The translations under genes and the position numbers were made by a program. From an uncultured bacterium (GTDB lineage Bacteria; Omnitrophota; Gorgyraeia; Duberdicusellales; 4484-171), in the NCBI GenBank assembly GCA_913050175.1, contig CAJXAF010000004.1:1-40973 (forward strand): DNA of 40,973 nt, written 5' to 3'. The notes below the pieces were generated by a model. The model was not told the DNA's origin. It ran no database searches and worked only from the letters and a program-made list of their open reading frames with translations. Within the stretch, counting starts at the first letter, position 1. The number at the start of each line of letters is the position of its first letter. This document shows positions 879-36,129 of this stretch, piece after piece.

Positions 879-1361
879 TTATGAAACCTCGTCTTTACTT
901 TCAGCAGGACTCTTATCCTCGCTTTTCTCCTCTTGATTTGAAGCCTCTTTTTTGTTTTCAACAGGGCTCTTATCCTCGCTCACTTGACCGCGAGCAGAAG
1001 TTCTTTCGTTCTGATAGGCATCAAGAACTTTACTTTGAAGGTAGTCGCGAAATTCCTGATTGATCGGATGCGCTAAGTCCTGATGCGTAGCTTGTCGACT
1101 CTCTTCTGATTCTTTAGGAGCAGGTGGTAGCTGAACACCACAATGCCCGCAATATTGACTTCCTAAATCACATTTTTTCCCGCAACGTTGACAAAATTGT
1201 TTTAACTTTCTAGCTGGCATTGCAACAAACAACCCATTGTTACCTTCAATAACTTTTATATTTCTAACCACAAAAGAATTATCAAAAGTTATTGTTGCGT
1301 AGGCTTTAAGACGTCTGCCCTCATTATCTCGAAGAGAAACTCTGACCTCTGTGATCTCCAT
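879..1361 (-). CDS. spoVG: SpoVG family nucleic-acid-binding protein with zinc-ribbon insertion
   Basis: MEITEVRV...ITFDNSFVVRNIKVIEGNNGLFVAMP...DLAHPIN; inserted CQRC...CGHC; AAGGAGG RBS. Confidence 0.92.
   Translation of the reverse strand: MEITEVRVSLRDNEGRRLKAYATITFDNSFVVRNIKVIEGNNGLFVAMPARKLKQFCQRCGKKCDLGSQYCGHCGVQLPPAPKESEESRQATHQDLAHPINQEFRDYLQSKVLDAYQNERTSARGQVSEDKSPVENKKEASNQEEKSEDKSPAESKDEVS
910..980. repeat. 14-bp direct repeat CTCTTATCCTCGCT (910-923, 967-980), part of a duplicated SEDKSP in the SpoVG tail
   Basis: Read directly; 57-bp in-frame period. Confidence 0.8.
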
Positions 1362-33581: not shown

Positions 33582-33641
33582 ATTAAATATTTTACACTAT
33601 CTGCCACCTGAGGCAATAGATTCAAGAATTTACCAAGGTAC

Positions 33642-33664
33642 TGGTTGAGATCTGATCTCAACCA
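33642..33664. repeat. Perfect 11-1-11 palindrome TGGTTGAGATC-T-GATCTCAACCA
   Basis: Read directly; related hairpin at 36081-36106. Confidence 0.85.
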
Positions 33665-33667
33665 ACT

Positions 33668-33690
33668 GGTGGCCGCAAATTACGGCCACC
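33668..33690 (-). terminator. GC-rich hairpin after spoVG2 (no clear U-tract)
   Basis: GGTGGCCG-N7-CGGCCACC. Confidence 0.45.
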
Positions 33691-33708: not shown

Positions 33709-33969
33709 TTAGCTACTCTTTCCATAACTAGAGATAACTGCTTTGCTAAGTGCTTCTTTTGTTTGCGCAGTTAAAGCAAGGGCTTTGCTATACCATTTTC
33801 CATCTTTGGCCTTTTCTCGTGGCGGACTAACAAACAATCCCTCTTTGCCTTCAACTACACGAAATCCCTTTACGATGAATTCTTCACAAATAGCCACATC
33901 ACAGATAGCTTTTGTTACCCCATCACCATCAAACCGGTGAAGCCTTGTAACTTTAAAATCTAAAACCAT
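33709..33969 (-). CDS. spoVG: Second, short SpoVG family protein
   Basis: KAICDV...FIVKGFRVVEGKEGLFVSPP...DGKWY; AAGGAGGT RBS 7 nt before ATG 33969. Confidence 0.85.
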   Translation of the reverse strand: MVLDFKVTRLHRFDGDGVTKAICDVAICEEFIVKGFRVVEGKEGLFVSPPREKAKDGKWYSKALALTAQTKEALSKAVISSYGKSS

Positions 33970-33985
33970 TCTAACCACCTCCTTA

Positions 33986-34028
33986 TTTAATAGACGAGAT
34001 GACTAGACAAATTCTTTCAAAAATTTTT
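33986..34028 (-). promoter_or_regulatory. Putative ECF promoter of spoVG2
   Basis: AAAAATTTT-TGAAAG(34019-34014)-N17-CGTCTA(33996-33991)-TTAAA. Confidence 0.75.
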
Positions 34029-34145
34029 ATTTTTTTATAGTCCGGCCAAAATACGCCCAATCTTTGCAGAACTTGGTCAATAAAGAAGTTAAGCATCAAC
34101 CGTTAGTAAAGTCCTAAAATTGCTTGTTTTAGCTGAAATGAGAGG

Positions 34146-34685
34146 TTATTTATGATAGGATTTAGATCTATCTCTTAAACGTTGAGAAGTTTCATCGTCA
34201 TCATCATGAGAATGCTTTCGCCAGGAATCAAGGACCATAATAAGTGTACGCCCGCTTTCGCTCTCAAAAGCCCAACGCATCCCCAAAATAAGGGTAACTA
34301 CTAAAAACTGCATGAAATACTTAGGAATGAAAAAAGACAAGACAAAAGGTATGATCGCACCTAAAAGAAATAAATTCTTCTTTATTTTCCTATTTTTTGA
34401 ATTTCTATCATCTTTAACTAGATCTTTTGCTGCTTTAATTAAATTGTCCGGCACCGGGATATTGGTAGTTTTATTAATTTTTCCGGCTTCAAACACTAAA
34501 TTCAGCCGGCTAAGACAAAAACCACAACTGGCGATATGCTTTTCTGCCTTATCACAATCTTCTTTATCAAGTTCATGTTGAAAATAATCCATTAAAAACT
34601 CATCACTAAGACAAAAGGGACTTTTTTCGCTATTGCCTAAATTCTGGCCTAAATAATTTTTAATCAACTCTTCGGCTTTATCCAT
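34146..34685 (-). CDS. Zinc-binding (ZAS/zf-HC2) anti-sigma factor with two TM helices
   Basis: C...HIASCGFC (HxxxCxxC); directly downstream of the ECF sigma; ATG 34685 after GGAGAGGG. Confidence 0.82.
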   Translation of the reverse strand: MDKAEELIKNYLGQNLGNSEKSPFCLSDEFLMDYFQHELDKEDCDKAEKHIASCGFCLSRLNLVFEAGKINKTTNIPVPDNLIKAAKDLVKDDRNSKNRKIKKNLFLLGAIIPFVLSFFIPKYFMQFLVVTLILGMRWAFESESGRTLIMVLDSWRKHSHDDDDETSQRLRDRSKSYHK

Positions 34686-34697
34686 TTCCCTCTCCAC

Positions 34698-34740
34698 TTT
34701 AATAGACGAAACATCAGCCTATTTTCTTTCATAAATTTTT
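34698..34740 (-). promoter_or_regulatory. Putative ECF promoter of the anti-sigma gene (-35 overlaps the sigma stop codon)
   Basis: AAAAATTTA-TGAAAG(34731-34726)-N17-CGTCTA(34708-34703)-TTAAA. Confidence 0.75.
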
Positions 34741-35295
34741 TATCCCCTGCTTTGTTAACTCTTTTTTAAGCTTATCTTTAGCCCTAGCAATTGTTGTTGA
34801 TACAGTGTTTACCGGGATATTCATAATACCAGCTATCTCTTTATGGGTTCTGCCCTTTAGAAGGTTTAAAGAGATAATCATTTTTTTTCTAAACGGTAAC
34901 ATATCTATTATATCACTTACTACATTCAGTAAGTCGCCATAGAGTATCTCCTGCTTAAAATTACTGCTGCTTAGTACCAGCATATCAGGAATTAACCTTT
35001 CCCTGTCACGAATTCTGCGACGCATAAAATCAACTGTCTTGTTAAAAGCTGTAATTGCCAGCCACCCGGCAATGGCTTTACCATCCTTTAGCTGAATAAG
35101 TTTATCGCCGTCTAAAATTGATAAAAATACTTCCTGAAAAATGCAGTCAATATCATCCTGGCTAGATTCAAAACTACTTGCGGCTAAACGCTTTCTTATT
35201 GCCCAGTAAATTAACTTTGAATATTTCTGAACAAATAAATCCCAGGCTTTTTTATCCTTTTTTAAACAGCGGTTTATAAGCTTTATTTTATCCAT
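34729..35295 (-). CDS. ECF RNA polymerase sigma factor
   Basis: Region 2 (FQEVFL, WLAITAFNKTVDFMR) and region 4 HTH (HKEIAGIMNIPVNTVSTTIARAK). Confidence 0.92.
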   Translation of the reverse strand: MDKIKLINRCLKKDKKAWDLFVQKYSKLIYWAIRKRLAASSFESSQDDIDCIFQEVFLSILDGDKLIQLKDGKAIAGWLAITAFNKTVDFMRRRIRDRERLIPDMLVLSSSNFKQEILYGDLLNVVSDIIDMLPFRKKMIISLNLLKGRTHKEIAGIMNIPVNTVSTTIARAKDKLKKELTKQGIKNL

Positions 35296-35312: not shown

Positions 35313-35645
35313 TTAATGATTTCTACGGGCAGCATAGGTAAAGCTTAAAAAGTATCTTTTAAGCGACTCATCTGTTGATGCGTACTGATTGTTGCCAAAG
35401 AAATAATCTACGAGTGCCTCACGCAGGCGAGCGACTTCCTTCAGGCGGGTAAAAATCTTACTGCAATTTAAGGTCAGATCTATAAGTTCAAGGGCACGTT
35501 CAAAGGCTTTTTGAGAATAAGCACTGTTCTCTTTTGCCCGCCAATTAATGGCGCGCTCAACTTCACTTCCAATATTAGCCATTTGCTCTAAAAATGACAG
35601 TTGACTCCAGCGCCCGGCAGCAAGGTTTTTATGTTGAAAATTCAT
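35313..35645 (-). CDS. Hypothetical helical protein
   Basis: RW..LS..EQMANIGSEVERA, ERALELIDLT, EVARLRE; ATGA overlap with the upstream gene. Confidence 0.75.
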   Translation of the reverse strand: MNFQHKNLAAGRWSQLSFLEQMANIGSEVERAINWRAKENSAYSQKAFERALELIDLTLNCSKIFTRLKEVARLREALVDYFFGNNQYASTDESLKRYFLSFTYAARRNH

Positions 35646-35983
35646 CTCTTAATCATTTTTCCAATAATTTCAATAATTTTGTTGCGCATTTCGTCGCTTT
35701 CTACTCCGCGGCTCCTATTATTTTGAGAAGGGCGCATATTAATCATAGAATCAAATTCAACAAATCCATCATCCTGCTCGTCTGGATAAAAATTAACTCC
35801 CCACAGGCTTTCTTGCTTGGAACCATTCTCAATAAGTAAAGCTTCCAGATCAGAATGTAGCTCAGCATTAATAGCAATCAGCTCTTTATCGACGTCAACT
35901 ACAGCTTTCACTAAATCTCCAAACAAAGCAGAAGCCATCTGCTTAATCTCATCTAAAGTTATTGTTTCAGTTATTATTTTCAT
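35642..35983 (-). CDS. DUF5674-like protein
   Basis: VKAVVDV, ELHSDLE, GSKQESLWG.N, EFDSMINMRP.QNNRS (family recalled, not searched). Confidence 0.7.
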   Translation of the reverse strand: MKIITETITLDEIKQMASALFGDLVKAVVDVDKELIAINAELHSDLEALLIENGSKQESLWGVNFYPDEQDDGFVEFDSMINMRPSQNNRSRGVESDEMRNKIIEIIGKMIKR

Positions 35984-36016: not shown

Positions 36017-36044
36017 ATTATAGCAATCTTTTGGATTAAATCAA
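36017..36044 (-). promoter_or_regulatory. Sigma70-type promoter for DUF5674-hypothetical-sigma unit
   Basis: TTGATT-N16-TATAAT with TGn extension. Confidence 0.65.
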
Positions 36045-36129
36045 CTTTTAAGGCTGGGGGTGTTTTAAGTGTTTATTTCCCTGGTTGAGGTCAAACCTAA
36101 AACCAGCTAAAATAGTCTATTCTTTGCAA

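Follow-up and report, generated by a model that had tools for sequence, protein, structure and literature searches.

A candidate ECF sigma/anti-sigma switch with a linked SpoVG paralogue in an uncultured Omnitrophota bacterium

Three described systems come closest to the one reported here, a putative switch in which an extracytoplasmic function (ECF) sigma factor, a zinc-binding anti-sigma (ZAS)-type protein and a second SpoVG are encoded side by side in an uncultured bacterium of the phylum Omnitrophota (GenBank assembly GCA_913050175.1, contig CAJXAF010000004.1, positions 1 to 40,973; this whole stretch of 40,973 nucleotides [nt] is referred to below as the window). In Bacillus subtilis, the gene for the ECF sigma factor SigW adjoins that for RsiW, a membrane-anchored anti-sigma of the HxxxCxxC type, and SigW reads promoters of the TGAAAC-N16-CGTA class; RsiW spans the membrane once, its extracytoplasmic domain is cut by site-1 and site-2 proteases, and sigW-rsiW is an autoregulated operon. 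RshA, the partner of SigH in Corynebacterium glutamicum, is a soluble zinc-finger (ZAS) anti-sigma. The sigma-B factor of Staphylococcus aureus does not belong to the ECF type, and spoVG of that organism is the housekeeping copy in its usual context, unlinked to sigB; this ordinary SpoVG is reported to serve as a downstream effector of the alternative sigma. According to the study of C. glutamicum by Busche et al. (2012, PMC3489674), the SigH and RshA genes are cotranscribed from housekeeping promoters, a SigH-dependent promoter drives rshA alone (proposed to permit rapid shutdown), and the SigH regulon includes disulphide and heat stress, SOS and proteasome genes.

Our analysis of the window indicates that it very probably encodes an ECF sigma/ZAS-type anti-sigma switch together with its cognate promoter, TGAAAGAA-N15-CGTCTAT following an A/T-rich stretch, a reading that rests on comparison of sequences. 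The features that make up the switch are as follows.

34729 to 35295, minus strand: gene for an ECF-type sigma factor of 188 amino acids (aa), with Pfam and NCBIfam matches
34698 to 34740, minus strand: P(anti), predicted ECF-type promoter, AAAAATTTA-TGAAAGAA-N15-CGTCTATTAAA, 48.8 bits by position matrix
34146 to 34685, minus strand: gene for a ZAS-type anti-sigma of 179 aa, with zinc-finger residues, two hydrophobic segments and a C-terminal tail
33986 to 34028, minus strand: P(spoVG2), predicted ECF-type promoter, AAAAATTTT-TGAAAGAA-N15-CGTCTATTAAA, 58.6 bits, the top site of the genome
33709 to 33966, minus strand: spoVG2, 85 aa, ATG start, matching PF04026

The sigma factor scores above the cut-offs of TIGR02937 (66.3 bits; cut-off, 42.9), PF08281 (45.1 bits; cut-off, 25.7) and PF07638 (27.2 bits; cut-off, 21.1), and it is a small sigma made of regions 2 and 4 only, as is characteristic of ECF (group 4) factors. 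None of the NCBIfam subfamily or equivalog models reaches its cut-off for this protein, which is assigned at the superfamily level only. For the anti-sigma gene, the ATG at 34685 was favoured over the GTG at 34697 given in the list of open reading frames (ORFs), because a ribosome-binding site (GGAGAGG) precedes it and the N termini of orthologues agree. The start of spoVG2 was similarly taken as the ATG at 33966, where the ORF list has the GTG at 33978.

In its predicted wiring, the locus matches SigH-RshA, with a housekeeping promoter for the sigma gene and a sigma-dependent promoter for the inhibitor. An earlier reading of the window, made from its sequence alone (hereafter, the sequence-only reading), had proposed such negative feedback; our findings support the proposal, but the wiring is not new, since SigH-RshA has the same design (PMC3489674). 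The two systems differ in that the Omnitrophota anti-sigma carries two hydrophobic segments and a conserved tail, in the promoter sequence and in their phyla, which are unrelated. Moreover, the Omnitrophota sigma matches a superfamily model only, and its conserved targets are the SpoVG paralogue and an ORF6N gene, with Y1 transposase-like genes in relatives. With SigW-RsiW, the locus has in common an adjoining, membrane-anchored HxxxCxxC anti-sigma, and TGAAAGAA-N15-CGTCTA resembles TGAAAC-N16-CGTA. Unlike RsiW, the Omnitrophota anti-sigma would enter the membrane as a hairpin, its two hydrophobic segments leaving next to no loop outside, and the motif is missing upstream of the sigma gene; the NCBIfam SigW models also score far under their cut-offs on the Omnitrophota sigma (42.3 versus 209 bits and 36.3 versus 243 bits). 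What is shared with S. aureus sigma-B is the use of SpoVG as an effector of an alternative sigma. In the Omnitrophota genome, however, a dedicated second copy lies beside the sigma and anti-sigma genes, whereas the long copy stays between ispE-like and glmU-like genes.

The sequence-only reading knew of no described ECF system with SpoVG as its linked target. This agrees with our literature search, conducted by titles and the beginnings of abstracts, in which we found nothing linking SpoVG with an ECF sigma, or Omnitrophota with sigma factors; the main text of the ECF re-classification paper likewise mentions neither SpoVG nor Omnitrophota (Casas-Pastor et al. 2021, PMC7826278). Known, then, is the design of the switch; what is notable, and supported by the comparison of genomes, is the placing of a dedicated SpoVG paralogue, and in relatives of mobile-element-like genes, under the same predicted promoter. 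Omnitrophota are uncultured and, to our knowledge, almost nothing is known of their gene regulation. For this phylum, the locus provides a promoter readable from sequence, a matching sigma/anti-sigma pair and a small regulon.

The case for a cognate promoter begins with two exact copies of TGAAAGAA-N15-CGTCTATTAAA in the window (34731 to 34698 and 34019 to 33986, both on the minus strand), a pattern with 0 matches in 100 dinucleotide-preserving shuffles. The sequence-only reading had thus described correctly the identical spacing of the two copies before the anti-sigma gene and spoVG2. It was also right in placing the −35 element of the first copy on the stop codon of the sigma gene (the TGA of the motif, which starts at 34731, is the stop codon of the ORF ending at 34729) and in describing an A/T stretch, which reads AAAAATTT(A/T), upstream of both copies (AAAAATTTA/T). 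CGTCTA lies 17 nt from the anti-sigma ATG and 21 nt from that of spoVG2. The −35 element contains AAG where the ECF consensus has AAC, and the −10 element holds CGT at fixed spacing; recognition by the sigma is predicted only. The genome scan proposed with the earlier reading, TGAAAG-N17-CGTCTA, returned 4 matches, whereas the reversed control had none. We then scanned the whole 1.36-Mb assembly, with the reversed genome as a control, using a position matrix derived from 123 related sites. Just three sites exceeded 12 bits (58.6, 51.8 and 48.8), namely, that of spoVG2, a site at C56:2179 and that of the anti-sigma gene, and the reversed genome had none above 8 bits. The C56 site lies 45 nt upstream of the single ORF6N gene in the genome, which is followed by a BNR/sortilin-like gene.

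Reading the motif as a sigma-70 promoter was considered and rejected by inspection: TTGAAA and TATTAA lie 22 nt apart, and CGTC is the invariant block. A match to the loose pattern at C6:5296 was treated as chance, being without the flanking features and below 12 bits in the matrix scan. At C64:13-37, the very start of the contig, GAAAGAA-N14-CGTCTATTA has a spacer one base short and no same-strand gene downstream; it may be a relic or a small-RNA promoter, or have arisen by chance.

We surveyed 85 genomes of the order, in which a sigma orthologue was defined by an E value of ≤4e-50 (45 to 81% identity). Such an orthologue was found in 30 of the 85, two weaker matches (E values of 1e-13 and 1e-16) being counted as other sigmas. 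Exact TGAAAGAA-N15-CGTCTA occurred 123 times, in 32 of the 85 genomes, versus 4 matches for the reversed control. Of the sigma-bearing genomes, 28 of 30 contain it, versus 4 of the 55 that lack the orthologue. Most of the exceptions have a ready description. In one sigma-bearing genome that failed (G070), the sigma gene is cut by a contig end; in two motif-bearing genomes for which no orthologue was counted (G039 and G025), the same module is cut at the contig start; and a third (G023) has a single motif site without the flanking features. Across the 123 sites, a T directly follows CGTCTA in 120, a position that was not used in selecting them, and the A/T-rich upstream stretch is kept beyond the selected positions.

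Two further regularities of these sites may be recorded. A purine-only tract (consensus AAgGGGG) lies 8 to 14 nt past CGTCTAT, even where the start codon is 50 to 200 nt further on (33975-33985 and 34687-34697 in the window), and the promoter spacer is pyrimidine rich and often complementary to this tract. One genome, G066, contains two full sigma/anti-sigma/spoVG2 modules (contigs C6 and C2), each with both promoters, whose sigmas are 68% and 62% identical to that of the window.

The arrangement of the genes is conserved as well, so that the linkage, which the sequence-only reading could have seen refuted had it been unique to one genome, is found in many relatives in the order sigma, anti-sigma, spoVG2. 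Within the order, 28 of the 29 other orthologous loci could be assessed. The anti-sigma gene is directly downstream of the sigma gene in all 28, the strict motif lies between the two in 26, and in 9 loci the TGA of the motif doubles as the stop codon of the sigma gene. The next gene on the same strand is spoVG2 in 18 of the 28 loci, with the strict motif before 17 of the 18; in genomes where spoVG2 does not adjoin, a gene of this type lies elsewhere under the same promoter (L094, L108, L114, L120, L124 and L142). A broader sample of 401 genomes from the phylum yielded sigma homologues (E value of ≤1e-30) in 28, of which 20 loci, with sigmas 33 to 55% identical, were fetched. The anti-sigma gene adjoins the sigma gene in 17 of the 20, the other 3 being cut by contig ends, and spoVG2 is directly behind the anti-sigma gene in 14 of the 17. 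This gene order is retained down to 33 to 40% sigma identity, and the motif drifts along with the sigma in distant lineages (TGCAAGAA, TGTCTAA and CGTCAT variants). In family f9, the promoter before the anti-sigma gene is absent and the promoter before spoVG2 is kept, and spoVG2 is therefore the most constant target. The f9 loci (L175, L176, L186 and L187) also carry a near-perfect palindrome of 30 to 40 nt between the sigma and anti-sigma genes, the sequence of which varies by genome.

With regard to the sigma gene itself, no motif-like match (GAAA-N17-19-CGTC) was found within 1.5 kb upstream in any of the 30 loci, and, as the sigma gene is without the promoter that its product would read, we suggest that there is no positive autoregulation. 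Directly upstream of the sigma gene, several relatives have TTTACA-N17-TA(G/A)AAT or an extended −10. The expectation of the sequence-only reading, that the gene is expressed from sigma-70-type promoters, is consistent with these sequences. In the genome of the window, the sigma gene probably comes third in a DUF5674-p110-sigma transcription unit, with the following features upstream.

36017 to 36044, minus strand: sigma-70-like promoter, TTGATT-16-TGnTATAAT (10 of 12 hexamer positions matched, plus TG before the −10), upstream of the DUF5674 gene
35642 to 35983, minus strand: DUF5674 gene (PF18924, E value of 2.5e-37), the first gene of the probable unit that ends in the sigma gene
35313 to 35645, minus strand: 110-aa ORF (p110), whose stop is 17 nt ahead of the sigma start codon

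The promoter at 36044 to 36017 is a consensus match only, the region having 12 such matches versus a shuffle mean of 8.9. The DUF5674 gene overlaps p110 by 4 bases, and p110 has no Pfam or NCBIfam match. Among the 30 loci, the pairing of DUF5674 and p110 with the sigma gene is peculiar to this genome; it is absent beside the sigma gene in the 29 others.

The anti-sigma belongs to a family (39 sequences) in which H50, C54 and C57 never vary and at least 90% of the members keep C25. The resulting pattern, C25-x24-H50-x3-C54-x2-C57, places the ZAS class I motif (H/C-x23-26-H-x3-C-x2-C) in the N-terminal domain. The RsrA model, TIGR03988, scores 17.6 bits on the protein versus a cut-off of 62.5. 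Two adjacent hydrophobic segments (ca. residues 108 to 143), with PKY between them, presumably form a membrane hairpin with both ends in the cytoplasm, and the C-terminal tail is conserved (RWAFESE.GRTLIMVLDSWR.HS). When the sigma was modelled with residues 1 to 78 of the anti-sigma and zinc, the predicted complex scored 0.82 versus 0.00 for the best of three controls, a mark that, in calibration, 58 of 80 solved complexes attained, as did 2 of 110 mismatched pairs. Between runs, at least 90% of contacts agreed, with a predicted local distance difference test (pLDDT) score of at least 83 for the partner, and the predicted anti-sigma contacts fall on both sigma domains (sigma residues 28 to 88 and 122 to 180).

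The name spoVG2 is apt because the window contains a second, longer spoVG (at 1361 to 879).

879 to 1361, minus strand: long spoVG, 160 aa, between ispE-like (GHMP-kinase) and glmU-like (nucleotidyltransferase) genes

SpoVG2 matches PF04026 with 56.4 bits (cut-off, 29.6) and the solved SpoVG structures 2ia9, 2i9x and 2i9z with an E value of 5e-10 (2ia9, 4.7e-10 over residues 6 to 82); it is 31% identical to the long SpoVG over 54 residues. On the septation regulator equivalog NF009749 (cut-off, 108), the two score 51.9 and 98 bits, respectively. Because it falls under this cut-off, we regard SpoVG2 as a diverged paralogue for which the function of the named protein is not to be assumed. The short type is found in 28 of the 30 sigma-bearing genomes and in 4 of the 55 without the sigma. 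In one of these four, G018, the spoVG2-type gene is without the motif and has a TTGACA-type promoter in its place. The long SpoVG is probably the housekeeping copy. It has a 35-residue insertion with two CxxC pairs (QFCQRCG...YCGHCG), resembling a zinc ribbon, and a long tail that is acidic and rich in lysine; open frames of 133 to 196 aa in nearly all 85 genomes suggest that this long form is the norm in the order.

In relatives, the motif precedes a wider set of genes. We retrieved 80 stretches, almost all of them from downstream of motif sites that lie apart from sigma genes (three are at sites already seen beside a sigma gene, and one, at C64, is without the strict motif), and in 70 of the 80 a same-strand ORF starts within 300 nt. 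The Pfam tallies of these 70 first ORFs cover 25 of 32 families; among the families listed, Y1_Tnp (IS200-like) accounts for 25 ORFs, SpoVG for 8, ORF6N for 7 and phage integrase for 3, with single cases of 23S-rRNA-IVP, RhuM, BrnT, Phd/YefM, NYN, Fic, a Cas3-like HD/DEAD protein, citrate synthase and others; neither recA nor radC is among the families listed. At three distant loci, yraN and comM lie behind spoVG2. In the present assembly, Y1_Tnp (PF01797) has no match, and a tblastn search with the YraN and ComM proteins of relatives gave nothing at an E value of ≤1e-5, although the absence of these genes is not shown because the assembly is 91% complete. The part of the sequence-only reading that put the anti-sigma gene and spoVG2 under the motif stands, but the regulon would not consist of these two alone, given the ORF6N gene here and the Y1 transposase-like and other genes in relatives.

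Taken as a whole, the circuit may work as follows. Housekeeping-type promoters would serve the sigma gene, which here probably ends a DUF5674-p110-sigma transcript. The sigma would be held by the N-terminal zinc-finger domain of the anti-sigma, which the two-segment hydrophobic hairpin would tether to the membrane, until a signal releases it; thiol or membrane stress is our guess. Free sigma would then read P(anti), with its −35 on the sigma stop codon, and the extra anti-sigma mRNA made from a presumed start site there would, as negative feedback, end the response quickly. It would also read P(spoVG2), yielding a monocistronic mRNA for the compact SpoVG paralogue, which we take to be a nucleic-acid-binding output, and the third site would drive the only ORF6N gene of the genome and perhaps also the BNR/sortilin-like gene that follows. 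A circuit of a self-induced inhibitor and a dedicated SpoVG paralogue was the central proposal of the sequence-only reading, and the conserved motif and synteny lend it support.

A number of observations weigh against this interpretation. Region 2 of the sigma (PF04542) is under its cut-off (16.3 versus 24 bits), as is the zf-HC2 match of the anti-sigma (18.2 versus 22.2 bits; E value of 0.0027). The complex score of 0.82 may echo solved ECF sigma/anti-sigma complexes, and its calibration did not cover the custom alignments or the zinc ion used. Two loci (L032 and L035) lack the strict motif ahead of the anti-sigma gene, and one sigma-bearing genome (G019) fails the exact pattern; the module is present there, with sites that read CGTCTT. 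Conversely, G057 (91% complete) has three exact motif sites, and neither a sigma orthologue nor a short spoVG was found in it; of these sites, one is before an integrase gene, one is before a Y1 transposase-like gene and one is without a gene. The anti-sigmas of four relatives (L030, L031, L033 and L170, in G030, G004, G033 and G358, respectively) are 116 to 144 aa long and lack the whole HxxxCxxC part, so the N-terminal domain is not indispensable everywhere. Finally, the co-occurrence counts (28 of 30 versus 4 of 55), which are given in place of a test, overstate the support because related genomes are not independent.

The truncated anti-sigmas of those four relatives retain the first ca. 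12 residues, the membrane hairpin and the tail. G030, G004 and G033 have 5 to 6 exact motif sites each (G358 was outside the motif scan), and the sigma in all four genomes may be unrestrained or otherwise controlled.

A different factor might instead read the motif, be it a DNA-binding repressor, an activator or the second ECF sigma of this genome (contig C11), which has an HxxxCxxC anti-sigma of its own; the nearness of the motif to the focal sigma gene would then be incidental. Such a factor would also account for G057, with its motif sites and no detectable orthologue of the focal sigma. Yet the second ECF sigma occurs in 22 of the 85 genomes, only 10 of which have the motif, and 22 further motif-bearing genomes are without it, compared with the 28 of 30 versus 4 of 55 recorded for the focal sigma. 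The motif also has the two-block layout of ECF promoters, with a fixed 15-nt spacing and a fixed distance to the start codons, and it changes in step with the focal sigma in distant lineages. We therefore give this explanation a slim chance, and these comparisons support the view that the motif tracks the focal sigma rather than the second one.

A very slim chance attaches to the idea that the motif marks the end of, or is a signal within, a mobile or repeated element, such as a Y1/IS200-like one, and that its promoter look is a by-product. The 25 Y1_Tnp and 3 integrase genes among the 70 first ORFs, with several toxin-antitoxin or defence-like ones, point in this direction, as do the closeness of many motif sites to contig ends and an inverted repeat around the −10 at some sites, with duplex energies down to −17.7 kcal/mol. 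Against these stand the genome of the window, with three motif sites and no Y1_Tnp gene, and the figure of only 13 of 43 Y1_Tnp matches, in five genomes, with the exact motif directly upstream. The P(anti) copy overlaps the 3′ end of the sigma gene and persists in 26 of 28 loci despite diverging flanks, and the conserved stretch is only ca. 45 to 60 nt long and always in one orientation relative to the downstream gene. As to the inverted repeat, spacer and downstream tract pair barely better within their own site than when swapped (mean, −5.81 versus −5.40 kcal/mol; standard deviation of the means, 0.19); we make no case for a conserved hairpin around the −10, the effect being mostly compositional. 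It is hardly credible, in turn, that only P(anti) works and that spoVG2 is expressed by read-through of the sigma/anti-sigma transcript, its own motif copy being in decay. The interval from the anti-sigma gene to spoVG2 yielded no terminator-like site, as read-through would have it, but P(spoVG2) is the best-scoring site in the genome (58.6 bits), and the motif before spoVG2 persists in 17 of 18 adjacent loci. It is retained, too, by spoVG2 genes relocated from the sigma locus (L108, L114, L120, L124 and L142) and in f9, where the anti-sigma promoter is absent.

Returning to the sigma/anti-sigma switch, one can speculate about its purpose. It is possible, though doubtful, that an Omnitrophota-specific ECF regulon of DNA/RNA-handling proteins has spoVG2 as its universal core output, and that a membrane- or redox-sensing switch would turn on a DNA-transaction programme (recombination, uptake, or control of mobile and defence genes) with SpoVG2 as a nucleic-acid-binding cofactor. 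We would place in this regulon spoVG2 and the ORF6N gene here; the Y1/HUH transposase-like, integrase, Cas3-like and toxin-antitoxin genes of relatives; and yraN-comM, behind spoVG2 in some lineages. In a bolder form of this idea, SpoVG2 would also bind the anti-sigma at its conserved cytoplasmic tail and in this way act back on the switch. If the regulon is real, mobile-element genes of relatives (Y1 transposase and ORF6N), domesticated or resident, would come under the direct control of host stress signalling. Furthermore, a dedicated SpoVG paralogue tied to an ECF switch could offer a route to the still unclear function of SpoVG proteins.

On its downstream side, the module appears to be bounded by a hairpin directly 3′ of spoVG2.

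33668 to 33690, no strand assigned: G+C-rich hairpin, GGTGGCCG...CGGCCACC, 8 pairs, 7 of them G-C

This hairpin is likely the terminator that closes the unit, with termination on the minus strand only inferred because the T-run sits on the plus-strand reading. The rubrerythrin-like and membrane genes further downstream were kept out of the module because this neighbourhood is not conserved beside it in the 29 other loci. Similar short hairpins, (C)TGGTTGAGGTCAnACCTAAAnCCAG or GGTTGAGATCAGATCTCAACC, recur between genes, at 36075-36100 and 33640-33665 in the window and at ca. 2125-2150 on C56, before the C56 promoter. They are possibly a family of terminators or of elements resembling repetitive extragenic palindromes (REP), and related short hairpins are seen upstream of the sigma gene in three relatives (L015, L019 and L021).

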